A stretch of DNA of 64,000 bases, taken from assembly GCA_045631185.1 (NCBI GenBank), contig JAZQUH010000039.1, positions 9,522 to 73,521 on the forward strand. The letters run 5' to 3'. The number at the start of each line of letters is the position of its first letter. Position 1 is the stretch's first letter. The notes under the pieces were generated by a model. It was not told the origin of the DNA. It saw only the letters and a program-made list of their open reading frames with translations, and made no database searches. The position numbers and the translations under genes were made by a program. This DNA is from Alphaproteobacteria bacterium. Lineage in GTDB: Bacteria; Pseudomonadota; Alphaproteobacteria; CAAHEQ01; UBA3637. Positions 10,004 to 43,982 of the stretch are shown piece after piece.

Positions 10004-10913
10004 GGCCGGCCATCGTGCCGAAAAAATCGCTTTGCTTTGGCTGATGCTGAAAGGCTATCGTTTGGTGGCCAAAAACTTTGTGGTGGGGCGTGGCACCGGT
10101 GCGGGCGAAGTGGATTTAATTGTTAAAAAGGGCAAAACGTTGGTGTTTGTTGAGGTTAAAAAACGCCCCGATGAACAAACAGCATTAAATGCTATTCGTC
10201 CCAAAAACAGACAGCGCATCCAAAAAACATCCATGGTCTTTTTATCACGAAATCCCAAATATCAAAATTACGAAATTCGCTATGATGTGATGATGATGAC
10301 GGGTGGCTTGCCCAAACATTTGCCCAATGCATGGCGACCATTTAGTTTGATTTTTTTATTGTTTTTACTGAGTGGTTGTCAAATGTGGGGGACTTTAATC
10401 AGTGGGGCTCACAGCCTGTGGGGAGTTGTGGCCGATGACAGGCCGTTAAATGAAGACGCATCGGATATGGGGCTTTACACCCAAATACGCCAAAATTTGG
10501 CCGCCAGGGATATTAAATCACTTTTGGATGTTCAAATTACCGTTTTTCAAGGGGCTGTTTTATTGACCGGTGCCTTACCCAATTGGGAAGAAATTGCCCA
10601 AACGGTTGAAATTGTATGGCAAACACCAGGGGTGAATTATGTTTATAATTATATCCGTGTGGGCAAAACTTTGGGGACAGTTCAAACATCCGAAGAGGCC
10701 GCCTTATCCGCCTCAATTCGTACCAAGTTAAGCCTGACACAAGGTATCAAATCATCTAACTATAAATTGGTGATGGAAAACGGGACAGTTTATTTAATGG
10801 GCATTCAACAAGATGCCGATGAATGGCAACGGGCCCGTGCGGTGATTGCTGATACCTATGGTGTGCAAAAAATTATCTGTTTGATGCGGGATAAAGAAAA
10901 TCAAGACAAATAA
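9972..10913 (+). CDS. YraN-family nuclease-like domain fused to a BON-domain (DolP/YraP-like) lipoprotein
   Basis: N-terminal GEVDLIV..LVFVEVK and IRYD; internal LLSGC lipobox; two BON-like repeats. Confidence 0.85.
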   Translation: MPKFWHTTNYKAGHRAEKIALLWLMLKGYRLVAKNFVVGRGTGAGEVDLIVKKGKTLVFVEVKKRPDEQTALNAIRPKNRQRIQKTSMVFLSRNPKYQNYEIRYDVMMMTGGLPKHLPNAWRPFSLIFLLFLLSGCQMWGTLISGAHSLWGVVADDRPLNEDASDMGLYTQIRQNLAARDIKSLLDVQITVFQGAVLLTGALPNWEEIAQTVEIVWQTPGVNYVYNYIRVGKTLGTVQTSEEAALSASIRTKLSLTQGIKSSNYKLVMENGTVYLMGIQQDADEWQRARAVIADTYGVQKIICLMRDKENQDK

Positions 10914-10925
10914 ATTGCAAAAATA

Positions 10926-10963
10926 AAAAAAACAGCATGTTTCACAACATGCTGCTTTTCTTT
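10926..10963. terminator. Bidirectional intrinsic terminator
   Basis: cagcatgtt-tcac-aacatgctg with A and T tracts, between convergent genes. Confidence 0.75.
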
Positions 10964-10973
10964 GTCGAATAAA

Positions 10974-13900
10974 TCAGAATTTCCAATTTAATCCTGTTTG
11001 TGCCTTTGTACGGGCTTCAGAATCAATATAAGATAAGACAGAGCCATATAATTCTAAATTATCCTTATTCGACCAGTTGAAACCAGCACGTGCTACAGCA
11101 CGGTTTTCTGAACGGTTTTCATCTTCTACATCAAACGTGCCTGCCATACCATTCATACCCAAACGTAATGTGTAAGGATCGGCAAATTCATGATAGAGCA
11201 TTAAACCAGCGTTTAAGTTTAATTTTCCATCTGTTAATTCGGTCTGTTTTGTTGCATAGAAACCAATACCGCTTTCTACTGACAACATATTTTGGTTTGG
11301 AATTGTTAAACTGAATTCTTTTGCATCTTCACGGCCTTTTTGTTGATAGCCAAGGACGTTGAATTCAAATGTTGGTTCTAAACTCCATCCGGCTAAGTGT
11401 AATGGATATCTGGCTTCGTTCATGATACCATAGACACGTTTTTCGATTTCACCTTCGTAAGAAAGTCCACCCAAGCCTGTACGGTCATATGATCCTTTGG
11501 CGTATCCTAATCGTGGTGAAGTAACCATATCCATTTTACCGACTTTATAACCAAAAGGAACAATCATCTGGTACATTGTATCCTGGCGACTATTACTGTC
11601 ATTATCGTCATCACTACTGATATCTGTAAAGGCGATACCCAAGCCAACAGATGTTGCGCCATCACGTTTGTTTACTAAACCATAGCGACTGGTGGAACCC
11701 ACATCGCCCTTGAATGCCATCGGGGAAACAGAACCCGAAATAGACATATGGGCATCTTTATTATGGAACAGATTGTTATTGATATCGTAATTTAATTCAC
11801 GCATCATTGTCAAATCTTCAAAATTGAAGCGAGACAAAACATCTTTTCCTGTCAGTTCTTTTAAACTATTATTTAAAGCAGATTCGCTTCCAAACGATTT
11901 CAGTTTGTTATAGAAATTTTCATTATTTTCTAAGGCATAGTTTTGACTTAAGAACCCTGCCAAAGAAGAGTTATCCATAACATCTGAAAATTCTTTCATC
12001 TTCATGATGACATCTGTTCCATTATCAGCCAAAGAGGCGTCGAACAAAGCAGATTCGGATTTCAATGTCAACTTGGATGTGTCGGGTGAAGAAATCATAC
12101 CTTTTTCGGTATAGACCTTATCAAACCCTTTGGTAACCGTATCCGAAGCAATGCCAGCTTCACCATAAATGGATGTTGTTCCTGTTGTTTTTGAACCAGA
12201 GGATAAGGTTAATTTTAAAGCAGAAGCATCAATGGTTGGGGCTATAAGTTCGCCAGCGTTATTAACGTTTGACAAACTGCCATTTGGTCCCAATTTAATG
12301 AAGTTGCCTTCCTCTTTTGAACCATCAACATTTGTTCCAGCTTCTACGCCATTTACTTTAATTGTTCCTGTATTCTTAATGTATGTTTCGCTTCCGTTAA
12401 TATAAATACCATAGGCATTCGCACCGTATGCACCTTCTTCGCCAACACTTACGAAAATGTTTCCTTCGTTAATGATGGAAGAGGTAGGACTGTCCAAATA
12501 AATACCATAGGCTTCGGCCAATTTATTTGAAGATGATACATCAATTGTTCCTGTGTTTTTAATCACATTGCGGAAATTGCTGCCTGCCATGATACCATAG
12601 GCATTACCACCGCTGGAAACAGTAATATTACGGCTGTTTTCTATATAGCTATCCCCATTTGTAATAATACCATATAAATTCTGATTAGAAGGTGCAGTAA
12701 GTCGAATTGTACCGGAATTTATAACTTTGTAACCTCTGCCGGCATGAATACCATAAGAAATTTCGCCAGTATTTACTGTACCTTGATCATAAGTTGATTC
12801 TAAATTTATAGTACCCTCGTTAAGCACAGTTTTGTTTGAAGATGAATCTTCTACATGTATACCTGTTGCAGTTATTCTTTTTTCATTCGTAATGGTTATT
12901 GTACCTGTATTTGTGATATCACTGTCGTCCAGAGAATAGATACCGGTTGCAGCATTTGTTAATTTACTGCTTAAGTTAATTGCGCCCGAATTAACAACAC
13001 TGGATAATGCTTTGCTTCCGTTGTTATATATACCAAAAAATGTTGTCCTTTCGGCAGTTTCAGAAGTATTTGACAGATTAATTTTTCCGCTATTTGTGGT
13101 TATTCCCTGGTCATTGTGGATACCGACCAAACCAGCATCAGTTGTTTGTGTTTGTAATGAAATGTCACCTGAGTTGGTTACGTTTAACATTGCCGTGCTG
13201 TCTGTTACCGTTGGATCTATTTCGGCCAATATACCATATCCATTCTCTTTGATATTTGTTAATGAAATACCCGAGCCATTTGTGGGATTACTAATGATTC
13301 CACTGCCCGAATTTGTAAAGGCATAAGTTCCTGTTTTTTGATCGGTTTTAAAATTGGAACCAAAAGCAGTGAGATAATTGTCAATTTTAATTGTTCCACT
13401 GTTTTCGGCCGTTCCGTTTATGGTATGTATACCAGCAGCAATCTTACCATCATATGTGGTTGAAATATCAATAACCCCTTTGTTTATGGAGTTTTTAAGT
13501 GGAAGTGTTCCGTCTTGTGCTGAATGGATACCTACTACATCATTTACATCCTTAATGGTTATTTTTCCGCCAGCACCATTGACGGCTTCTTTTGCGTGTA
13601 TACCAGTGGCTGTCCCCAGGTTTGCAGCGCCGGTTTGTTGAATTATGATATCCCCATTGTTAGATGCGGTAATATCCGATTGAATGGCAACATATTCACC
13701 GTCTGCTGATGAAGTCAGTGAAATCAAGTCATTTAATCTGCTGTGGGCCCCATTTTTACCGTATATTCCGGTCAATTTTGTGTCAGCATTTTTGCCGCTT
13801 AATTCAATTTTCCCTTGGGATACATCATTATTGGAATTGTATGAATTATTATTGGAATATAATCCATAAAATTCCTTGGTTGAAACAGGGGCTGTGCTTG

Positions 13901-16900
13901 CTTCTATAATCTTAATGTTACCAACAGCAGTTGAGTCTTCTCCGTGGGCGTTATAGACATCTGATTCAGAACGCATACCATACACATTTGCGGTACTACT
14001 GTCTTTAATAGAGATAGTTGCTGTTGCCCCTGAACCGTCACCAACTGATTGGGCGTTATAAGTACCATTGATGCCGACCACATTGCCTGTCATTTTTATA
14101 CCAACAGTATTATCAATTTCTAACATACCAACAGCATTACCACCATTTGTTGCATAAGCATTTACACCAGTAATACCAACAATTTCACCCTTCATGTTCC
14201 CCTCGGCCTTATTGGTCATATAAACACCCGCATTTGCCTCTGTTCCTTCCCCATTGGCTTTTGCGTTATAGGAGGTTACATCACCAAAACCGCCCAAACC
14301 ACGTAAGGAAAGCTCAGTCGTGCTGACAGAACCAGTAACTTCTGTGTCAAAATAAATACCACCTTGGGTCTTTTTGTTGATATTGTCTGCCAAAGCGTTT
14401 ATACCATTACCCAATGCATAAAGAATAAAATTGGATTTTCCTGATGTAGTGGTCGTATCAATTCTTTTATCAATCTCTTTTGTTGTATTGAGTGCGCCAT
14501 CTGTTAAATCAGTAGCCGCTATGGAAGAAGAGTATTGAACACATTTTCCGTTTAGTTTTTGATAGTTTTCGGCACAAGCAGAACATTTAGGACCTGTATA
14601 ACCTGGTGCACAAACTCCACATATACACTGTCCCGAAGTTGCGTCAAATGTGGGAGCCCCTGTACAGTTTGGGATCGCCATGCTAGCACAAGTAGGTGCT
14701 GTACAGCTTAATTTGTCGGCGGATAAGACATAATCCCCTTCACATTTGTTACATTGATGTAATGTATCCGTCCCACGTAAACAGGAGTCGCCTGTTTCGC
14801 AGTTTGCAACAGCCGTTGGATTACCTGTACAGGCAGGATCTGGTATACAGGTATTTGTTGTTGAATCCAGAGCATATCCAGGTTCACATGTCGTGCATGT
14901 ATATAATGTATCCGTCCCATGTAAACAGGTCGTTGGAGTTTTGCAGTTTGCAATAGTCGTTGGACTACCTGTACAGGCAGGATCTGGTATACAATTATTA
15001 TTGGTTCCAGGCTCAAAGCCTTCGTTACATGCTGTACATGTATAATAAATTGTTCCTGCTGAATTACAGGTTGTTGGGGCGTCACAGCCTGTATTATCTG
15101 TGTTTGTGCTGGTACATGCTATAGGTGTACAGTTATCTCCTTCATATCCAGCGTCACATGTATCGCATTTGTCATTTGTTTGTGTTTCGCAATTTGGAAT
15201 TTCTGCATAACATTTACCGTCGGCCCCTTCTGTATAACCAGTATCACATGTATCGCATTTGTCATTAGGTTGATGGGCGCAATTTGGAACTGTGGGATAA
15301 CATTTGTGGTCGTCTCCTTCAGTGTAATTAGGTGCGCAAGTTTCGCATTTAAAACCCATATAACCAATTGCACAAAGTCCACATATACACTGTCCCGAAG
15401 TTGCGTCAAATATGGGAGCCCCTGTACAGTTTACGATCGCCATACTAACACAAGCAGGTTCAGTACAGCTTAATTTGTCGGCGGATAAGACATAATCCCC
15501 TCTACATTTGTTACATTGATGTAATGTATCCGTCCCACGTAAACAGGAGTCGCCTGTTTCGCAGTTTGCAACAGCCGTTGGATTGCCTGTACAGGCAGGA
15601 TCTGGTATACAATTATTATTTGTTCCGAGCACAAATCCGGCGGTACATGCTGTACATGTATAATAAATTGTTCCTGCTGAATTACAGGTTGTTGGGGCAT
15701 CACAACCGGTATTATCTGTGTTTGTGCTGGGACATGTTACAGGTGTACATGCATTTGCTTGCAAATTCCAACCGTCTTCACAACTGTTACACTGGTCATT
15801 TATTTGTGTTTCGCAATTTGGAATTTCTGCATAACATTTACCGTCGGTCCCTAACTTATAACCTGTGTTACAACTTGTACAAGTGTAAAAAGAATTTTCT
15901 CCTGACTGACATGTATTATATGTGGCGCATCCTGTTAAAGATGAATTCGTTGTTGGACAGACTACCGTTTTACATCTTCCACCATCTACTTCCCATCCTG
16001 CTTTACATTGGGAACAGGTGTTGCCTGTTTGTTTTCCTGTTTCACAATTTGGAATTTCCAAATAACATTGATTGTTATACAAAGTGTAACCTGAGGCGCA
16101 ACCAGAACAAGTGCTATCATGTTGCGTTAGACAGTTATCAATCTTTTTATAACATTTTCCGTTTGAACCTAGTTGATGTGTACTTAAACACTCTGTACAA
16201 TTATAATAATAATTGCTTGCACCAGATTGACATCGATCATAATTGCTACATCCGTCGGTGGATGTGTTCAAAACGGGGCATGACGTAATGGTGCAGGTAT
16301 TATTTTCCAGTGTCCAACCCGCTTTACACTTAGGACATGTATCTGCGTTTTGTCCATCACAGTTTTGGATTTCACGATAACAGCGATTATTCTGTTTTAT
16401 ATAGTTTGTTTCGCAAGCATCGCATTGGTTGTCCTTTTGTATGGCACAATTGTCGATCTTCACTTTACAGCTTTTTCCATCTACGCTTGGTATATAACCA
16501 TTATTGCACGACAGACAAAGATCTTTTGGTTGATGAATGCAGTTGTTAATTTTGGGATAACACCCTCCATCTGTTCCTTCGTGATATCCTGTTGCACAAC
16601 TGCTACAATCTAATCCAGAAAAACCCTTTTGACAGGCTAGCACTTTATATTTTGTTATGCCAAATGCGGTACTTGACAAACATTTAGCCGCACGAGTCGG
16701 GCAACTGTCTAAAGTATAAGTGCTGTGATCATCATTAATGCTGGGGCTACTGTCGCTGCCGCCACCACCGCCGCCACCACCGGCAGCCAAAGCTATTCCA
16801 CCACCGATAAGGGCTGCAACCCCAACGCCGATGCCAACTTTTTGTGCGGTGGAAAGACCAGATGAACTTTCCACTCTCACTCCAGATAAAAGATTAGGGG

Positions 16901-17321
16901 CATTTGAATTTGCTATCCAAGGACTTTTTGTGGAGGACGGCACAGATTTGGGGACAACAGTTTTATTTTCTGATATGCGTGAATTATGGTTTTGAGCCCA
17001 AGAAGCGTAACCTTCATTAAAACTTACAATTTCTTCTTCTGAGATATTTTGAATACAATCATGTGTGATACTTGCGCCCAGTTTTCTGAGCATGGCATAA
17101 GCTGTATAATTTTTGCTTTGAATAGCATTACATAAGGAGGAATCGCCATTTTCGTCAGCTAAATCCAACTGATAGCCCATATCACTTATTTTTTGCAGAT
17201 TGGTTTCATTTCCCTTGCCTGCCCAATAATAAATTGCTTGCTGAGGTGTCATCATATCAGAAGCAAAACCTTGTGCAACAAAGCCCAATGTTGTCAGTGT
17301 AAATAGCAATTTTTTAAACAT
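10974..17321 (-). CDS. Giant BigA-like autotransporter with Cys-rich repeat region (2115 aa)
   Basis: Signal peptide; ankyrin-like N-domain; hydrophobic segment then poly-Gly; about 720 aa of CxxC repeats; N(S/T)GxI beta-helix repeats; beta-barrel ending GLNWKF. Confidence 0.88.
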   Translation of the reverse strand: MFKKLLFTLTTLGFVAQGFASDMMTPQQAIYYWAGKGNETNLQKISDMGYQLDLADENGDSSLCNAIQSKNYTAYAMLRKLGASITHDCIQNISEEEIVSFNEGYASWAQNHNSRISENKTVVPKSVPSSTKSPWIANSNAPNLLSGVRVESSSGLSTAQKVGIGVGVAALIGGGIALAAGGGGGGGGSDSSPSINDDHSTYTLDSCPTRAAKCLSSTAFGITKYKVLACQKGFSGLDCSSCATGYHEGTDGGCYPKINNCIHQPKDLCLSCNNGYIPSVDGKSCKVKIDNCAIQKDNQCDACETNYIKQNNRCYREIQNCDGQNADTCPKCKAGWTLENNTCTITSCPVLNTSTDGCSNYDRCQSGASNYYYNCTECLSTHQLGSNGKCYKKIDNCLTQHDSTCSGCASGYTLYNNQCYLEIPNCETGKQTGNTCSQCKAGWEVDGGRCKTVVCPTTNSSLTGCATYNTCQSGENSFYTCTSCNTGYKLGTDGKCYAEIPNCETQINDQCNSCEDGWNLQANACTPVTCPSTNTDNTGCDAPTTCNSAGTIYYTCTACTAGFVLGTNNNCIPDPACTGNPTAVANCETGDSCLRGTDTLHQCNKCRGDYVLSADKLSCTEPACVSMAIVNCTGAPIFDATSGQCICGLCAIGYMGFKCETCAPNYTEGDDHKCYPTVPNCAHQPNDKCDTCDTGYTEGADGKCYAEIPNCETQTNDKCDTCDAGYEGDNCTPIACTSTNTDNTGCDAPTTCNSAGTIYYTCTACNEGFEPGTNNNCIPDPACTGSPTTIANCKTPTTCLHGTDTLYTCTTCEPGYALDSTTNTCIPDPACTGNPTAVANCETGDSCLRGTDTLHQCNKCEGDYVLSADKLSCTAPTCASMAIPNCTGAPTFDATSGQCICGVCAPGYTGPKCSACAENYQKLNGKCVQYSSSIAATDLTDGALNTTKEIDKRIDTTTTSGKSNFILYALGNGINALADNINKKTQGGIYFDTEVTGSVSTTELSLRGLGGFGDVTSYNAKANGEGTEANAGVYMTNKAEGNMKGEIVGITGVNAYATNGGNAVGMLEIDNTVGIKMTGNVVGINGTYNAQSVGDGSGATATISIKDSSTANVYGMRSESDVYNAHGEDSTAVGNIKIIEASTAPVSTKEFYGLYSNNNSYNSNNDVSQGKIELSGKNADTKLTGIYGKNGAHSRLNDLISLTSSADGEYVAIQSDITASNNGDIIIQQTGAANLGTATGIHAKEAVNGAGGKITIKDVNDVVGIHSAQDGTLPLKNSINKGVIDISTTYDGKIAAGIHTINGTAENSGTIKIDNYLTAFGSNFKTDQKTGTYAFTNSGSGIISNPTNGSGISLTNIKENGYGILAEIDPTVTDSTAMLNVTNSGDISLQTQTTDAGLVGIHNDQGITTNSGKINLSNTSETAERTTFFGIYNNGSKALSSVVNSGAINLSSKLTNAATGIYSLDDSDITNTGTITITNEKRITATGIHVEDSSSNKTVLNEGTINLESTYDQGTVNTGEISYGIHAGRGYKVINSGTIRLTAPSNQNLYGIITNGDSYIENSRNITVSSGGNAYGIMAGSNFRNVIKNTGTIDVSSSNKLAEAYGIYLDSPTSSIINEGNIFVSVGEEGAYGANAYGIYINGSETYIKNTGTIKVNGVEAGTNVDGSKEEGNFIKLGPNGSLSNVNNAGELIAPTIDASALKLTLSSGSKTTGTTSIYGEAGIASDTVTKGFDKVYTEKGMISSPDTSKLTLKSESALFDASLADNGTDVIMKMKEFSDVMDNSSLAGFLSQNYALENNENFYNKLKSFGSESALNNSLKELTGKDVLSRFNFEDLTMMRELNYDINNNLFHNKDAHMSISGSVSPMAFKGDVGSTSRYGLVNKRDGATSVGLGIAFTDISSDDDNDSNSRQDTMYQMIVPFGYKVGKMDMVTSPRLGYAKGSYDRTGLGGLSYEGEIEKRVYGIMNEARYPLHLAGWSLEPTFEFNVLGYQQKGREDAKEFSLTIPNQNMLSVESGIGFYATKQTELTDGKLNLNAGLMLYHEFADPYTLRLGMNGMAGTFDVEDENRSENRAVARAGFNWSNKDNLELYGSVLSYIDSEARTKAQTGLNWKF
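14615..15740 (-). repeat. Near-identical intragenic duplications in the Cys-rich region
   Basis: About 14615-14849 matches 15377-15611 (offset 762); about 14968-15120 matches 15586-15738 (offset 618). Confidence 0.9.
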
Positions 17322-17474
17322 GTTTCCCCCTTGGGTTACAATACGACTTACTACCCTTATACATAAAAAAAATATAAAAATCAACACTTTTTTTTGCTTT
17401 TTTATTATTCTTTATATGGAAAATCCAAAATAATAGTTTTTTTGTTTAAAAAGATAGCTAAATAAAAAAATCTA

Positions 17475-38179: not shown

Positions 38180-38770
38180 ATGTTTGAAGAATTAGAAAAA
38201 ATTAAATCAGAATGTCAAAATTGCATGCGTTGTCCTTTGGGAAAGACACGAACGAATGTTGTTTTTTCGGCCGGTGTCCCCAATTCGGATATTGTTTTAA
38301 TCGGTGAAGCACCGGGGTATAATGAAGACATGACGGGCGAACCTTTTGTGGGGCGTGCCGGTCAGTTATTGGATAAAATTTTGGAATCTGTCGGTTTTTC
38401 ACGCAAAGAAAATATTTATATTTGCAATACGATTAAATGTCGTCCGCCCGATAACCGTGATCCTTTGCCCGAAGAAAAAAAAGCCTGTCGTGCATATTTG
38501 GACAGACAGTTGAATTGTTTAAAACCAAAAATTATTTTATTGTGCGGTCGGGTGGCATTGACGTCATTCATTGAAACAAAACAGGGTATTTCAAAAATAC
38601 GAGGTCATTGGTTTGATGGACCGAACGGCGCCAAGATGATGCCGATTTTCCATCCGTCCTATTTGCTCAGAAATCCGTCCCATAAAGAAGGTTCGCCCAA
38701 ATGGTTGATGTGGCAGGATATGAAGGAAATCCGCCGTGTTTATGATGAACTTAAAACGGATTTAGCATAA
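38180..38770 (+). CDS. Family 4 uracil-DNA glycosylase
   Basis: CxxCxL Fe-S motif, GEAPG, PFVGRAG, KCRPP, FHPSYLLR. Confidence 0.95.
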   Translation: MFEELEKIKSECQNCMRCPLGKTRTNVVFSAGVPNSDIVLIGEAPGYNEDMTGEPFVGRAGQLLDKILESVGFSRKENIYICNTIKCRPPDNRDPLPEEKKACRAYLDRQLNCLKPKIILLCGRVALTSFIETKQGISKIRGHWFDGPNGAKMMPIFHPSYLLRNPSHKEGSPKWLMWQDMKEIRRVYDELKTDLA

Positions 38771-39186
38771 AAGTGTAATACATCCGTCAGACGTGGTAAT
38801 TTAATAATCACATCAAAAGTGTATCTGTCCAAAATATGATATTCTTTTAAATCCAATCGGTATAAAATCAATGCTTCTGTTGCACGTCCGACTATCAAGG
38901 ATTTAGGGAATAATTGTTTTAACGAATATTCCGTTTGATAAGCCAATAAAGTCGGCTGGCCAAAAACACTGTCTCGCCTTTCGTGTTCACGGATGGAAAA
39001 CAATTCCAAACCGTTCCATGACAAACCATCCGTCACATGCAAAAATTGAATATAATCCGATGGTATTTGAATCCATCCTTTTTTAACCAATGCAATGGAA
39101 GTGCGTTGAATATCCATCATTTGTGCCGGCGGAAAAAATTGGGCGTAATTTTGATACAGGGTATTTAAGATGGTATTGATGCTCAT
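38740..39186 (-). CDS. SUKH/SMI1-KNR4 (YrhA-like) immunity-type protein
   Basis: IPSDYIQFLHVTDGLSWNGLELFS. Confidence 0.75.
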   Translation of the reverse strand: MSINTILNTLYQNYAQFFPPAQMMDIQRTSIALVKKGWIQIPSDYIQFLHVTDGLSWNGLELFSIREHERRDSVFGQPTLLAYQTEYSLKQLFPKSLIVGRATEALILYRLDLKEYHILDRYTFDVIIKLPRLTDVLHFYAKSVLSSS

Positions 39187-39863
39187 TATCGCCCCCCTGT
39201 TTTAATGGCTATTTGTTGCAAATTGGCACTGCTTAAACCCGCCTGAGTGGAACGGTCTGACTTTTTCTTGCCACCAGAACCGGTCATTTCCCCATTGGGG
39301 ATATAAACTTTCCCCAAAGGAACTGGGATATATAATTTTTGCGGATGTCCCACACCGGCCGAAGTCAAAATTTGTTGATTGATATATTTGTGAATCAGTT
39401 CATGAAAGGGGTGAATGGGAATCAAAACCAAATTATCCATATCTAAATTGCCCCCATATAACAACGGATATTTTAAATGCACCGTCCAATTGGTGGGCAA
39501 AATGCCCTTGGACATATAAAAGATACTTTCTTCGGATATATCGGCACTGCGTAAATCATTCAAATACTGATCCACCAAATCCTTTAAAAACACCAATTTT
39601 AAAGTTTCCAATTTTTGATGAAATTCACTTTCATTGATGGTATGCGGATAATAGTTGGCCGACATCAATTCCATATTGGCAAAGTTTTCATTTTGGAATA
39701 AGTCCACCCAATAATCCTGATCTTTAGCATCCGAATCCAACCCTTCCATTAAACCGTCCAAACTGTTGGTATCCATATCACCAGACGGGGATGAATTGTT
39801 CATCAACTGATCCCAGTTTTCATATAATTCAGATCCATCCAGTTCGGTCATGTTATCAGCCAT
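39186..39863 (-). CDS. HNH-endonuclease-like protein
   Basis: GILPTNWTVHLKYPLLYGGNLDMDNLVLI..HPFHELIH. Confidence 0.65.
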   Translation of the reverse strand: MADNMTELDGSELYENWDQLMNNSSPSGDMDTNSLDGLMEGLDSDAKDQDYWVDLFQNENFANMELMSANYYPHTINESEFHQKLETLKLVFLKDLVDQYLNDLRSADISEESIFYMSKGILPTNWTVHLKYPLLYGGNLDMDNLVLIPIHPFHELIHKYINQQILTSAGVGHPQKLYIPVPLGKVYIPNGEMTGSGGKKKSDRSTQAGLSSANLQQIAIKTGGR

Positions 39864-42153
39864 TTAAACCATCCTTGGGTGGTGGGGGTTGAAATGTAGG
39901 GGCAGATGTGGGGGCCGTAAAGATACCCTGTCCCTGAGGCGGCAACAAAGGTTGCATCGGTGTTGATGTGTTTTGTGGGGCAAAATTGCTTTGAGAAGGC
40001 AATTGATTACCATTGGGTTCTGATTGATTTTCTTCGGGCTTTTGTTGTTGGTTTTCCGGTGCTCGTCTGTCCACAATCCATTGGGGGATATATGGGGCGG
40101 TTGGAATCTGAGTTTTTTTCAAAAAGCCTTTATCCAAATAATAACGTGGGGCATCAGCCAAAATCGGATGGGATAAGAATCCCTGGAATAACACATATTG
40201 TTTTAACATATCCAAGCTTAAAATATCCGAAGCACTGACCACGTCTGATTTTTGCAATTGACGGGAAACGTTTTGTGAAAAATCAAACATTTTTTGACCA
40301 CCGCCTTCTTGTTTGGATGTGCTTTTAACTTCAATCGTTTTGGAACCAATCATTTTCACAAAACGTTCGGCTGTTTGTTCGTTGTTTTGGGACAAAATAA
40401 CTTTTGCCGCCGTTGTGGAAATAATTGTTTCCAAATCATCTTTACCGTATTGGCCGGAAATTTGGCCTAAATCCTGACCAATCAATAAATAGGCCACCTT
40501 TTGTCCACGACCGACCGCAGGACCGTTTTTCACACAATCCAGTTTCGGCATTTGTGGGAATTCGTCCAATACAAATAAAACAGGACAAGGACCGCATTTT
40601 TGACCATCGTTTCCCACATAGCCCGGCGGATTGGCAATTAAAAACGAGCTGACCAATTCCACAAAAATACCTGTAATCACATTCAAGGCACGGGCATCCA
40701 CTTGGTTAATGGATAAATAAACGGAAATCGGTTTGATTTTGCCGTCCGCAGGATCCACCATACCACGCAAATCACGGAAAGTAAAATCACTGAATTTTGT
40801 ACGTTCTTTTACGGCTGCGTTTTTAAAAATACTGATACCTGATAAAGCGGTTGATAAAATTGAACCACGTTCTTTGTCGGGCGTACTGGATAACTGATTT
40901 AATTCGGCAATGGCACGGCGGGCATAGGCAAAGCGATTGCTTTCATTCACAGCCGCATCCAATACGTCCTTCATGGGATCGGCCATCATGGCCATTTGGT
41001 CGCCTTCATCGGAACGGCGTTTGATATCGGCGGCGATTTTCATCTGCATATCGGTCAGCCATTCCAAAATCATGGCAATGCATGGTTCATGCCCATGCCA
41101 GCTTTCGGGCAGACCTTCCCATGTACCAACAGGGGCGTAATTGTTTAAATTTAACTGTCCCCTTTTTAAAGCATCCAATGCAATCATAGCACTGTTATCG
41201 GACATATCGGCATAGTAGGTGGCCAAAACATTGGCATCTTCTTGATCAAAAGAACCCTCGGATAATTTATTGATAAAGTAATCATTGGCACGGGCCCGTT
41301 CACATTTGCTGGCGATAAAATGTAAAAAACCACTCATGGCATTACGGCCCGTTTTACACCAGTGTGGATCCGCACCACCTTTAGGTTCTTCCACCAACAC
41401 GGCAACCATAGAGTCAATATACATATCTCTGGCTGGTCCCAATGGGGGTAATGCCGTGGGCGATAAAGGATTCCAGCTGGGGTAAAAAACACCGTTTTGT
41501 GGTTCATCCTGGGCACCCCAGTTGATAATGAAAACAGGTCCGATTTTATTACGATATCCTGATGTTTGATAACATAATTCGGGCTTTACGTCATTGACAA
41601 TAATACTTAAAGAATCGGATTCAAAAATCGTTGGGATAACCACACCGGCAGTTTTACCGGTTCCCGGTGGTGCCACCACCAAGGCGGATAAAGTGTTAGG
41701 CATTTTTAATAAACGCCCCTTGAATCGACCCAGCACACAACAAAAACCATCGAATAATCCCATCTTTTTAATATCACGATAGGATGCCAAACGACCGCTG
41801 CCAAAAACAGTGGACATATTGGAGTGTGGGTTTGTAAATAAACCGACAAAAATAATAATGGGAATAACTGCCAAAGGGATGAATGGTAAAAACATCACTA
41901 TTGGGGCAGGGGAGATTGACCAAAACTTTTTAAACCATTTAGAATAAGTTAAAATAATTTCGCCGGGATGCAAAAAGTGTTGAGCCCAAAAGCTTTTGAT
42001 TCTTCCTAATAAAGAGATTTCTCCTGAATATAACCATTGTGCTATTGGAAAAACAAGAAGTGTTAAAATCCAAAAACACAATAATGCAAAAAAAACGGAA
42101 AGCAATATATGAATAATGTATTTATTTTGCTCTTTGTATTGATCGTCGGCCAT
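39856..42153 (-). CDS. virD4: Type IV secretion coupling protein (VirD4/TraG)
   Basis: Two N-terminal TM segments, APPGTGKT Walker A, NDVKPEL, WNPL, VLDEFP, QDLGQI. Confidence 0.93.
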   Translation of the reverse strand: MADDQYKEQNKYIIHILLSVFFALLCFWILTLLVFPIAQWLYSGEISLLGRIKSFWAQHFLHPGEIILTYSKWFKKFWSISPAPIVMFLPFIPLAVIPIIIFVGLFTNPHSNMSTVFGSGRLASYRDIKKMGLFDGFCCVLGRFKGRLLKMPNTLSALVVAPPGTGKTAGVVIPTIFESDSLSIIVNDVKPELCYQTSGYRNKIGPVFIINWGAQDEPQNGVFYPSWNPLSPTALPPLGPARDMYIDSMVAVLVEEPKGGADPHWCKTGRNAMSGFLHFIASKCERARANDYFINKLSEGSFDQEDANVLATYYADMSDNSAMIALDALKRGQLNLNNYAPVGTWEGLPESWHGHEPCIAMILEWLTDMQMKIAADIKRRSDEGDQMAMMADPMKDVLDAAVNESNRFAYARRAIAELNQLSSTPDKERGSILSTALSGISIFKNAAVKERTKFSDFTFRDLRGMVDPADGKIKPISVYLSINQVDARALNVITGIFVELVSSFLIANPPGYVGNDGQKCGPCPVLFVLDEFPQMPKLDCVKNGPAVGRGQKVAYLLIGQDLGQISGQYGKDDLETIISTTAAKVILSQNNEQTAERFVKMIGSKTIEVKSTSKQEGGGQKMFDFSQNVSRQLQKSDVVSASDILSLDMLKQYVLFQGFLSHPILADAPRYYLDKGFLKKTQIPTAPYIPQWIVDRRAPENQQQKPEENQSEPNGNQLPSQSNFAPQNTSTPMQPLLPPQGQGIFTAPTSAPTFQPPPPKDGLNG

Positions 42154-42166
42154 TTTAATTTCCCCC

Positions 42167-43312
42167 TTATAATAAAATTTGTCTTAATTGTTCAACAGCA
42201 TCATCCGATAACGGTTCATATTGTTTATTTAAAACTTCACTCAGTGTTTTTAATTCTACAGGTCCGCCTTTATCCGTCCGACAAACCATAACCCCTAAAT
42301 CATTCCAGGTTCTGAGCATATCTTCGGCATTGATAATATTACCTTTTCGTTCAATCAACATCGGTTGCACCTTTAAATCAAAGCCGGCATCGGATAATTT
42401 TTTCGCAACAAGCTTTCCTGTTTGCATCAATTCAAAAACAGGCGACACACGATGGTCCGTTTCGGAAAACCATAAAGGATCTTCATCATTAAAGGCTTCT
42501 TCATCGGCCAACCAATCTCCGTCTATATCATCATAGCGAGCCCATAACATTTGCCCCTGACAAACGGCCACAAAGCCGGATGCCTGTTCATCAGATACAA
42601 CACCCGACAAAACCGACCAACCTGTATTGGACAACAATTCATCCGGATTTTCATCAACAGATGGCTGGGCTGGCAATTGAATTTCCTCTAACGGTATATC
42701 GGCCATTTGTTTTAAATCAGCCTCCAACGGATTATTCCAAGAAGTATCCATCGGCGTATCGGGTGTAAATGACCTATCATTAGCCATAGGTGATGTCGTA
42801 TAAGAATTTGGCATTTCAGCCAGCATCGGATTGGATTGCGCAAAACTTTGTTGTTGAACGGGTTGGGAACGCATTGTTGGCCCCATTGTAGGCATCGGCA
42901 TCGGACGTTGCGCCGAAATGGGCGGTGCTTTAATCGGCTTATGTGAAGTATGAGCTGGTGTTTTGTGTTCAGATTTTTTGGGAGGTGTTGATATTTTTTT
43001 CTTGATATGTTGAATGTGTTTTTTGGGCAAATGAGCCACTTTTTTTGCTGAAGCACGCCATTGAATTTTATTGGCCCAATACCAAATCCCCAAATACATC
43101 GGAATAACCAAAATAAAGGAAATCAGAAAAATCCAATCCCCCGCACTGGAAACACGCCAACCGGCATTGATTTCCTGAAACAAAAAACGCCACGATTCAC
43201 CGGAAAAAAGATTAAAATTCCAATTGATATGCAAAAATCCCCTGAACCACCATCCAAAAAACAGCAGTCCCACAACCAAACCAATCAATAAAGTTCTTTT
43301 CGGGTTTTGCAT
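42167..43312 (-). CDS. Membrane protein with Pro-rich linker and an acidic C-terminal domain (possibly nuclease-related)
   Basis: Two TM segments; WLADEE..PLWFSE..HRVSPV motif. Confidence 0.7.
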   Translation of the reverse strand: MQNPKRTLLIGLVVGLLFFGWWFRGFLHINWNFNLFSGESWRFLFQEINAGWRVSSAGDWIFLISFILVIPMYLGIWYWANKIQWRASAKKVAHLPKKHIQHIKKKISTPPKKSEHKTPAHTSHKPIKAPPISAQRPMPMPTMGPTMRSQPVQQQSFAQSNPMLAEMPNSYTTSPMANDRSFTPDTPMDTSWNNPLEADLKQMADIPLEEIQLPAQPSVDENPDELLSNTGWSVLSGVVSDEQASGFVAVCQGQMLWARYDDIDGDWLADEEAFNDEDPLWFSETDHRVSPVFELMQTGKLVAKKLSDAGFDLKVQPMLIERKGNIINAEDMLRTWNDLGVMVCRTDKGGPVELKTLSEVLNKQYEPLSDDAVEQLRQILL

Positions 43313-43448
43313 TTTGCTTCCTTTTGGATCATTATACACAAAATAAAACTGTTTGACCAGCAAAAAATGCGATAAAACAAAAAAATATAATCGGTCTTGT
43401 AAAAGACATAAAAATACGCTATAATTAGGCTTTAATTCGGATGAAAAA

Positions 43449-43982
43449 ATGAGACGCAAAACAGAACCCAAAAAACGATTACATGACTGTGATTTTCCCG
43501 GCTGTCCTGAGGCGGGCGAATATCGTGCCCCAAAGGACAGAACTTTGCGTTCACATTATTGGTTTTGTCAAAAGCATGTGGCCGAATACAACAAAAAATG
43601 GGATTTTTTAAAAGGCCTTTCCCCCGATGAAATAGAAGAACAACTGCGTAATGATACGACATGGCAACGCCCCCGATGGAAATTGGGTTCAAATATCGGT
43701 GGCATGCCCCGCTTTAAAGATTCAATGAATGTTTTTTCGGAAGAACGGTTGGGGATGGACGGTGGCTATAATCCCCCCAGTCCATCTTTAAAATATCCGC
43801 CCAAAGTGCAACGGGCGATTGCCTTTATGGATTTAAAAATGCCGATACAATTATCGGATATAAAAAAGCAATATAAGGTCTTGGCGAAAAAATACCATCC
43901 GGATGTCAGCAAAAAAGATGCCTCGCTTTTCCAAAGACTCAGAGAGGCTTATGAAATTTTAACGGATTATCTGAAAGGATAG
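43449..43982 (+). CDS. J-domain protein (alphaproteobacterial DnaJ-like)
   Basis: N-terminal CDFPGC..WFC..HV; C-terminal HPD. Confidence 0.9.
   Translation: MRRKTEPKKRLHDCDFPGCPEAGEYRAPKDRTLRSHYWFCQKHVAEYNKKWDFLKGLSPDEIEEQLRNDTTWQRPRWKLGSNIGGMPRFKDSMNVFSEERLGMDGGYNPPSPSLKYPPKVQRAIAFMDLKMPIQLSDIKKQYKVLAKKYHPDVSKKDASLFQRLREAYEILTDYLKG

Follow-up and report, generated by a model that had tools for sequence, protein, structure and literature searches.

A VirD4 operon with an HNH-fold protein and a SUKH-superfamily protein in Alphaproteobacteria, possibly a toxin-immunity pair turned into accessory parts of a coupling protein

The immunity partners of colicin-type DNases, the group to which colicins E9 and E7 and pyocins S2 and AP41 belong, are Im-type four-helix proteins, and HNH domains at the C-terminus of polymorphic toxins are reportedly paired with SUKH immunity proteins (Zhang, Iyer and Aravind). 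Among type IV secretion systems (T4SS), the Dot/Icm coupling complex of Legionella consists of DotL together with DotM, DotN, IcmS, IcmW and LvgA. The X-Tfe and X-Tfi proteins of the Xanthomonadales are varied active effectors and their immunity proteins, with VirD4 recognizing a C-terminal domain of about 120 residues in the effectors, and the rvh system of the Rickettsiales is a chromosomal T4SS with scattered genes. Outside the Dot/Icm system of Legionella, little is known, to our knowledge, of accessory proteins that aid a coupling protein in the choice of its substrates. Here we present the analysis of an operon of virD4 and three accessory genes in a stretch of 64,000 nucleotides (the window; C39:9522-73521, where C39 is contig JAZQUH010000039.1 of GenBank assembly GCA_045631185.1) from an Alphaproteobacteria bacterium whose assembled genome is 75.7% complete.

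The operon comprises four tightly packed genes on the minus strand at 38740-43312, encoding a membrane protein (TM-NERD), the VirD4 coupling protein, an HNH-like protein and a SUKH-like protein, in this order. This coupled arrangement was described in the initial annotation of the window and is borne out by the list of open reading frames (ORFs) and by the DNA itself, as are the overlap of 8 bp between virD4 and the HNH-like gene (ATGGCTGA), the overlap of 1 bp between the HNH-like and the SUKH-like gene (TAATG) and the KTGGR ending of the HNH-like protein. Two explanations had been offered there, a live antibacterial toxin-immunity pair and a domesticated pair now serving VirD4. The domesticated pair is favored here because the second His of the HNH motif is lost in every VirD4-linked copy and because the HNH-like gene is a universal core gene under purifying selection; the live antibacterial pair is considered improbable.

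The reading preferred here, to which we give slightly less than an even chance, is that the genes of a toxin-immunity pair came to lie next to virD4 by capture and were disarmed, and that their products now form, together with the pseudo-NERD membrane protein, a fixed accessory assembly of the coupling protein. The four genes would thereby make up a coupling-protein module, the VirD4 ATPase with three accessory proteins, of a chromosomal and vertically inherited VirB/VirD4-type system. The HNH and SUKH genes descend from a polymorphic-toxin/immunity cassette, the SUKH protein presumably being the former immunity protein of the HNH nuclease. Two of the accessory proteins would be nuclease folds with lost catalytic residues, one a membrane-anchored NERD domain and the other a colicin-type HNH domain devoid of the second His. 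All three are proposed to assemble on VirD4 at the membrane as a receptor or adaptor complex, as DotM, IcmS and IcmW do on DotL; the likely contacts would be the NERD domain, which is very acidic, and the basic tail with which the HNH protein ends in GGR. Of this reading, ancestry and folds, conservation, linkage and the missing second His are established here, whereas binding of the three accessory proteins to one another and to VirD4, inactivity of the HNH protein and its retention inside the cell are inferred.

The coupling protein is of secure identity: the assignment as VirD4 was correct, and the protein matches Pfam T4SS-DNA_transf (2.3e-54; 185 bits versus a cut-off of 20.1), TraG-D_C (9e-23) and TrwB_AAD_bind (7.7e-19). 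It contains a Walker A motif PPGTGKT and a Walker B motif VLDEF, N-terminal hydrophobic segments at residues 10-43 and 78-110, and a C-terminal low-complexity tail rich in Gln and Pro. Residues G164, G166, K167, T168, D530 and E531 are invariant among 18 orthologues from several families, which show a mean column identity of 63%. No cut-off of an NCBIfam equivalog is reached (for example 139 bits versus 728 for PRK13897), and the closest plasmid-borne type IV coupling protein (T4CP) shares only 32.5% identity; the window protein is therefore placed in a divergent VirD4 clade. This closest T4CP is encoded on an Erythrobacter plasmid in a plain virB8-9-10-11-D4 row, and no relative of the three accessory genes was found within 6 kb of it. 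Searches of PDB sequences with the T4CP, both as single sequence and as profile, delivered no match, which is odd beside the strong Pfam match, and were not used.

The HNH-like protein consists of an acidic disordered N-terminus with the conserved sequence ELDGxEIFxNWDQL, a core at about residues 46-192 and a basic disordered tail of about 33 residues. Its AlphaFold2 model, built with 24 relatives in the alignment, has an overall predicted local distance difference test (pLDDT) score of 76.5; residues 50-190 score mostly above 87, and the ends are disordered. The best Foldseek rows are the DNases of pyocin AP41, colicin E9, colicin E7 and pyocin S2 (E 0.06-0.6). A wide structure search independent of Foldseek listed 28 rows, of which about 25 belong to HNH or related nucleases (Z at most 5.7), and in a further search of PDB structures HNH-bearing proteins occupy 24 of 25 rows, with Cas8-HNH at Z 5.9 (root-mean-square deviation, rmsd, 2.8; 83 residues aligned). 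Colicin E9 aligns with the model at Z 5.0 (rmsd 3.4, 84 residues) and pyocin AP41 at Z 4.6. The Z values are modest, and it is the one-sided list of matches that identifies the modelled core as a beta-beta-alpha-metal fold.

Searched alone, the HNH protein has no match in Pfam, NCBIfam or the sequences of the PDB, none of the named toxin-HNH families of Pfam is reached at E<=1, and a PDB sequence search with the profile of the window's HNH family returned nothing useful. Sequence evidence comes by way of paralogues in other Alphaproteobacteria, found in a class-wide genome search, which carry the full motif V-H-H-K ... N ... H and are referred to here as HH-type. A profile of 14 HH-type paralogues matches Cas8f-HNH (2.1e-5), pyocin AP41 (4.3e-5) and McrA (0.013) in the PDB, and one paralogue touches Pfam Col-Pyo_DNase (6.3e-4). 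The window's HNH family and the HH-type paralogues align in hhalign with a probability of 99.8 (E 2.7e-28), NWTVHLKYP being placed on GYNVHHKLP. The HNH fold proposed in the initial annotation is thus upheld by the structure searches and, via the paralogues, by sequence.

An exhaustive search with the profile of the window's HNH family yielded 554 representative clusters at E<=1e-3. In 8 of the 27 long relatives scanned the domain is located at the C-terminus behind LXG, WXG100/PT-TG, PT-HINT, Tox-PAAR-like, MuF_C or Mu-portal domains, and all 8 of these relatives behind toxin-delivery or pre-toxin domains have VHHK and the remainder of the full motif. Because relatives are fused to LXG, PAAR-like, PT-HINT and MuF domains, the family is one of polymorphic-toxin nucleases, and the recognition of a nuclease gene followed by a SUKH gene as the classic toxin-immunity arrangement was justified. 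The hhalign alignment places L130 of the HNH protein on the second His of the HH pair, a position held by L, I, V, M, Q or R in all VirD4-linked copies examined. The motif had accordingly been read correctly as VHL rather than VHH; the further reading of GGNL in place of GGxN was mistaken, since the motif Asn is N144 in DMDNL. We take the second His to be the general base, the role reported for His103 of E9 and His545 of E7 in work on colicins. In a maximum-likelihood tree of 50 domains a single branch (support 99/99) separates 19 module-linked copies from 31 HH-type rows, which fits a single origin of the disarmed form. A Pfam match to an N-terminal delivery domain was found neither in the HNH protein, which stands alone, nor in its orthologues (200-445 amino acids).

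The HNH protein and colicins E9 and E7 and pyocins S2 and AP41 are alike in fold, in the motif layout H-x-K-x-P...GG...DMDN-L...H-x-x-x-H and in having the gene of a protective protein directly downstream. They differ in that the HNH protein has Leu for the second His, a core that is near neutral or acidic instead of strongly basic, and no receptor-binding or translocation domains; its partner is a SUKH protein, and its gene is a core chromosomal gene and not that of a plasmid-borne bacteriocin.

HH-type genes form arrays of their own between housekeeping genes of larger alphaproteobacterial genomes. In three genomes of other alphaproteobacterial families two to three HH-type HNH genes followed by one SUKH gene are located between pheA and queA (Table 1), so that one immunity-type gene is present for several nuclease genes, unlike the usual one-to-one cassette. 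Proteins of about 505 residues with two tandem HNH-like domains, the first lacking the motif His, are encoded at L064:7173-8699 and L065:6141-7658, inside HNH/SUKH arrays beside addA/addB-like genes. Some genomes of the order to which the window belongs contain tandem HH-type paralogues that are not adjoined by a SUKH gene. In one genome (G027, contig C14, L074:4104-6408) two tandem ORFs of 382 and 383 amino acids each contain a degenerate HNH-like domain followed by one of the HH-type; these ORFs are located about 1.4 kb from the VirB4 match, with no SUKH gene nearby. In the assembly of the window's genome a single HNH-like gene and a single SUKH gene are present.

The downstream protein of 148 amino acids matches NCBIfam YrhA NF038335 at 4.8e-14 with 52.5 bits versus a cut-off of 55, and all 26 of its orthologues match this family at E<=0.01 (best 2.1e-18). 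Pfam SMI1_KNR4, SUKH_6 and SUKH_5 are matched by the window copy with E values of 0.015-0.04, below the cut-offs; 14 of the 26 orthologues match SMI1_KNR4 at E<=0.1, all under the gathering score. The ESM Atlas places the protein among SMI1/KNR4 clusters with scores of 0.95-0.96, and a PDB search with the SUKH profile found nothing. On the combined family matches the protein is accepted as a member of the SUKH superfamily, in agreement with its first assignment.

The longest ORF of the membrane-protein gene spans 42167-43471; 28 orthologues align from the ATG at 43312, which is the likely start. The protein has N-terminal hydrophobic segments at residues 7-27 and 54-80, and its AlphaFold2 model (pLDDT 80.9) shows a long helical hairpin, a disordered linker rich in Lys, Pro and Gln at about residues 116-187, and a C-terminal domain at residues 219-367 that is acidic with an isoelectric point (pI) of 4.2. 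When residues 211-372 were used in a VIA-align wide search, PD-(D/E)xK nucleases filled 18 of the top 19 rows, with Upx at Z 8.6 (rmsd 4.0, 118 residues aligned), Can2 at 8.0, and NucS and AF1548 at 7.7. Foldseek agrees weakly, with SfsA, AF1548, BstEII and NucS at E 0.02-0.1. Pfam NERD is matched at E<=1 by 12 of 28 orthologues (best 2.7e-5) and not by the window copy, and the ESM Atlas gives a NERD lead at 0.85; a PDB sequence search with the protein returned nothing useful. No Lys is invariant in the domain: the invariant block GDWLADEE..PLWFSE..HR.SP contains no conserved Lys at the (D/E)xK position. The first Asp is Gly in the window copy, and the conserved block has the form D-x-[E/D/Q/I/K]-x-G-D-W; all this is read from the alignment and not from a superposition. 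Judged from these alignments, the C-terminal domain appears to be another nuclease fold with a defunct active site. This NERD domain is an addition to the initial annotation, in which the gene product was simply a membrane protein.

The operon and the Dot/Icm coupling complex have in common a gene for a protein with a membrane hairpin and a cytoplasmic domain directly before that of the coupling ATPase, small soluble partners, and a proposed role in substrate reception. The channel genes of the present system are VirB-type (type IVA) and the accessory proteins derive from nuclease and immunity folds, so that the two resemble each other solely in gene layout and in the role proposed. The 50 rows listed for the membrane protein include no DotM chain, and none of the Dot/Icm families DotM, IcmS, IcmW and DotN is among the Pfam and NCBIfam matches of the three accessory proteins at E<=1.

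Gene order was compared among species-representative genomes (34 loci). In every locus the HNH-like gene adjoins the SUKH-like gene, and 29 loci show all four genes in order; the remaining five are interrupted by contig ends, so that the conservation suggested as a check in the initial annotation holds as far as the contigs reach. The HNH-like gene is present in 80/80 genomes of the order (one family, 16 genera) and in 28 of 301 genomes of a sample of the class. Strong matches from other alphaproteobacterial families with the same operon amount to 10 loci, some of them with a second paralogue of the membrane protein. The ratio of nonsynonymous to synonymous substitution rates (dN/dS), computed against three relatives, is 0.04-0.12 for the HNH, 0.06 for the SUKH, 0.06-0.08 for the VirD4 and 0.16-0.17 for the membrane-protein gene; neighboring housekeeping genes range from 0.03 to 0.20, which encloses the operon genes. 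In universal presence, gene order and low dN/dS the HNH-SUKH pair of the operon is unlike a polymorphic toxin cassette. The polymorphic HNH toxins with SUKH partners share with it the domain family, as found by profile search, and the SUKH gene directly downstream, whereas the window's HNH protein stands alone, is universally conserved (80/80 genomes) with purifying selection on its gene, has no second His and is linked to virD4 by translational coupling.

The genome G156 from another family (0.9 Mb, 100% complete) is of particular weight. Its VirD4 orthologue (E 1.6e-236) stands alone, and the homologue of TM-NERD forms a separate three-gene operon with the HNH-like and SUKH-like genes elsewhere in the genome. 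The HNH-like copy of G156 has lost H129, H154, H158 and the second His, and a residue table shows the motif Asn and metal-binding His to be lost in the copies of both G156 and G324. A three-gene unit with the membrane protein, retained in a tiny genome and devoid of a nuclease site, is best read as one non-catalytic assembly. In an exploratory distance-matrix ('mirror tree') comparison of 29 loci, in which distances are near saturation and rows are related by kinship, the HNH protein tracks the T4CP (r 0.88) and the SUKH protein tracks the membrane protein (partial r 0.58).

The initial annotation found no virB gene in the window, which is correct, and advised a search elsewhere in the genome. 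A VirB4 match is located at C39:143143, about 90 kb off on the same contig, and contig C40 encodes VirB8, a second VirB8-sized ORF without Pfam match, VirB9, VirB10 and VirB11, followed by a dUTPase gene and not by virD4. VirB4 is present in 78 of the 80 genomes of the order and in all 54 of the high-quality ones; VirB6/TrbL was not found in the incomplete genome of the window. As in the rvh system of the Rickettsiales, a chromosomal and vertically inherited VirB/D4 set is distributed over several loci, possibly with a second VirB8-sized gene. The present system differs from rvh, and from the virB8-11-virD4 row of the Erythrobacter plasmid, in that virD4 lies outside the row in an operon of its own with three accessory genes.

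Several genes of these channel loci are unusual in themselves. The VirB10 homologue (L085:3208-9750, corresponding to C40:14207-20749, outside the window) has 2180 amino acids with the TrbI domain at residues 1878-2079 only, preceded by long 'beta-flower' repeats (Bflower_2 1.4e-40, Bflower 2.8e-15) that are very unusual for VirB10. Upstream of the VirB8 genes (L085:13080-18996, C40:24079-29995) there are an ORF of 516 amino acids and a run of five same-strand ORFs of 260-332 amino acids without Pfam match, which may be unrecognized components of the channel or a pilus. Directly after VirB4 (L086:5917-7725, C39:144916-146724) a cysteine-rich repeat protein of 602 amino acids is encoded, whose sole Pfam match is a weak one to a TNFR-like repeat.

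Several observations weigh against a disarmed protein that is retained in the cell. Among 25 orthologues of the order no substitution is seen at H129, H154 or H158, and at least 90% retain N144; with these residues invariant or nearly so, the metal site may survive, perhaps with activity by means of another base. For the role of the second His as general base the only support gathered here is the title of PDB entry 1v15, a His103Ala mutant with DNA. Linked HNH cores in other families have a pI of 9.4-9.8 and are basic like DNA-binding proteins. The tail of the HNH protein has a pI of 11.2, GGR ends are found in 14/25 orthologues and a terminal K or R in 23/25, and 9/14 HH-type paralogues likewise have R at the end; such a basic tail ending in K or R presumably resembles export signals of VirB/D4 systems, which would favor a substrate over an adaptor. 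In the distance-matrix comparison no extra co-variation of HNH and SUKH proteins was detected when the T4CP was controlled for (29 loci, partial r 0.06).

A more specific and less likely version of the proposed assembly is a new kind of coupling complex in gut and other Alphaproteobacteria, composed of VirD4, a membrane-anchored pseudo-NERD domain, pseudo-HNH and SUKH proteins, for which a toxin-immunity pair and a restriction-endonuclease fold would have been exapted. In it the acidic NERD domain would read basic C-terminal tails of substrates, as a charge-reversed analogue of DotM, and the dimer of dead HNH and SUKH proteins would be the adaptor or gatekeeper through which live HH-type nucleases of this family are admitted as effectors.

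The same tails could instead mark the HNH-like protein itself as an exported, non-nucleolytic effector, for example one that binds DNA or protein, with the SUKH protein as chaperone or adaptor to VirD4 and TM-NERD as part of the receptor. We regard this main rival as rather unlikely, although the basic cores of the linked copies outside the order and an N-terminal extension whose length varies between families speak for it. The tandem HH-type paralogues of G027, by their position near VirB4, suggest that the HNH family is cargo of this secretion system, and the HH-type paralogues of the order that have no SUKH gene of their own imply that the SUKH protein of the operon could serve several members of the family. 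An exported effector is harder to reconcile with G156, where a copy without metal-binding His is nevertheless kept in the three-gene unit with the membrane protein; universal single-copy presence and conservation like that of the T4CP fit a part of the machine at least equally well.

Improbable in our estimate is that the HNH protein is a live DNase which the secretion system delivers against bacteria or a host, with the SUKH protein as its immunity partner. Such a pair would have the same idea in common with the X-Tfe/X-Tfi proteins, namely toxins recognized by VirD4 and accompanied by immunity proteins in a chromosomal VirB/D4 system; the X-Tfe are distinguished from the single conserved and seemingly disarmed alphaproteobacterial protein with its tail of about 33 residues. 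The family does consist of true polymorphic-toxin nucleases, an immunity-type gene follows directly downstream, the four residues H129, N144, H154 and H158 are conserved, and the simplest reason for retaining an immunity gene is that its toxin is still in need of neutralization. Yet the second His is replaced in all linked copies, while the HH pair is kept in 8/8 relatives behind toxin domains, and the core is near neutral or acidic in the order (pI 5.4-7 in most members) compared with pI 9-10 in HH-type paralogues. Polymorphism is likewise absent, given the presence in all genomes of the order and the low dN/dS, a delivery domain at the N-terminus is missing, and every catalytic and metal-binding residue is lost in the copy of G156.

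A DNA-handling module, in which HNH-like and NERD-like proteins nick or hold DNA for relaxase-independent export or import via VirD4 and the VirB channel, is considered highly improbable. It is suggested by two nuclease folds beside an ATPase of the DNA-translocase family, by the basic linked cores outside the order and by the near absence of canonical relaxases: the relaxase family PF03432 was not found in the 75.7%-complete genome and is above cut-off in one of the 80 genomes of the order, and neither TrwC nor MobA_MobL occurs in any of the 16 genomes of the family searched. Against it, key catalytic residues are missing from both folds, the NERD domain has a strongly acidic character and the HNH core of the order is not a basic one; an oriT-like feature was not seen, none having been searched for, and SUKH proteins are not known to act as DNA-processing factors. 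That the HNH-SUKH pair is an addiction-like or defense cassette unrelated to secretion, present in the virD4 operon by chance, is very improbable indeed, for in spite of the HH-type HNH and SUKH arrays between housekeeping genes in genomes without this VirD4 clade (4/5 checked), the linkage to virD4 with overlapping frames extends across the order and several other families, the linked copies form a clade of their own, the pair still travels with the TM-NERD gene where it is apart from virD4, and PADLOC gave no credible match to a defense system.

Table 1. Coordinates of the operon genes, the adjoining intergenic region and the HNH/SUKH arrays of other genomes
Feature	Position	Strand	Remarks
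TM-NERD membrane protein	42167..43312	-	381 aa; start set by orthologue alignment
VirD4-type coupling protein	39856..42153	-	765 aa; Pfam
HNH-fold protein, putative pseudo-nuclease	39186..39863	-	225 aa, C-terminus IAIKTGGR; structure searches and paralogue profiles
SUKH-superfamily protein, probable YrhA/YPO0640 subfamily	38740..39186	-	148 aa; NCBIfam NF038335
Divergent intergenic region between operon and DnaJ-domain gene	43313..43448	.	promoter-like site on minus strand, 43359-43331 (TGGTCA-17-TATAAT)
HNH/SUKH arrays at pheA-queA	L062:5274-7077 and 10589-11690; L067:5452-7763; L068:5763-7667		

The operon is flanked by housekeeping genes, with ComEC, RecX and uracil-DNA glycosylase on one side and a DnaJ-domain protein and an amidohydrolase on the other; the DnaJ-like gene upstream of the operon is conserved in position in most related loci. 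The G+C content around the operon gives no signal of an island. In the intergenic region a promoter and terminator scan delivered 17 promoter-like sites compared with 17.3 in shuffles, a number not above chance, and the site listed in Table 1 is therefore to be taken as a placement only. In a metatranscriptome run (X20) short contigs of 95-99% similarity and low depth cover parts of the SUKH gene (38719-38894), of virD4 (39928-40139 and 40905-41304) and of the membrane-protein gene (43021-43252), with no contig over the HNH gene; owing to the low depth and possible DNA carry-over they speak neither for transcription nor against it.

The 3' end of the SUKH gene overlaps that of the convergent uracil-DNA glycosylase gene by 31 bp (38740-38770), and this tight convergent arrangement recurs in the nearer related loci. 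A contig of a DNA run (X1) joins across 41895-42068, skipping 172 bases near the 5' end of virD4, and may represent a variant in a relative or an assembly artefact. Elsewhere in the window, at 10974-17387 on the minus strand, an ORF of 2137 amino acids has an autotransporter beta-domain at its C-terminus (Pfam 8.3e-17); as a surface protein it is large, given that the genome measures about 1 Mb.

Literature searches on VirD4 with SUKH proteins, on coupling proteins with HNH or immunity proteins and on gut alphaproteobacterial orders revealed no description of this operon. To judge from matching traits, the order of the window may be Rs-D84 / Candidatus Enterousia. Rs-D84 is described as a single family of metagenome-assembled genomes of about 1 Mb from animal gut and rumen, lacking amino-acid and nucleotide synthesis and probably dependent on partner cells (PMC12306168); the word 'secretion' does not occur in that publication. 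Throughout a whole order of Alphaproteobacteria from gut and rumen, with genomes near 1 Mb in size, the module belongs to the core gene set (80/80 genomes), and the secretion system is a prime candidate for the interaction with the partner cells on which these organisms seem to rely. All four proteins are of a size that suits direct tests of binding and structure, and the sister copies of the HH-type would provide a built-in comparison of presumably active and disarmed forms. If the proposed assembly exists, it would be a second, unrelated solution to the problem of substrate choice, whose path from a nuclease toxin with an immunity protein can be followed stage by stage, and a clear case of a pair of weapons turned into parts of a machine.

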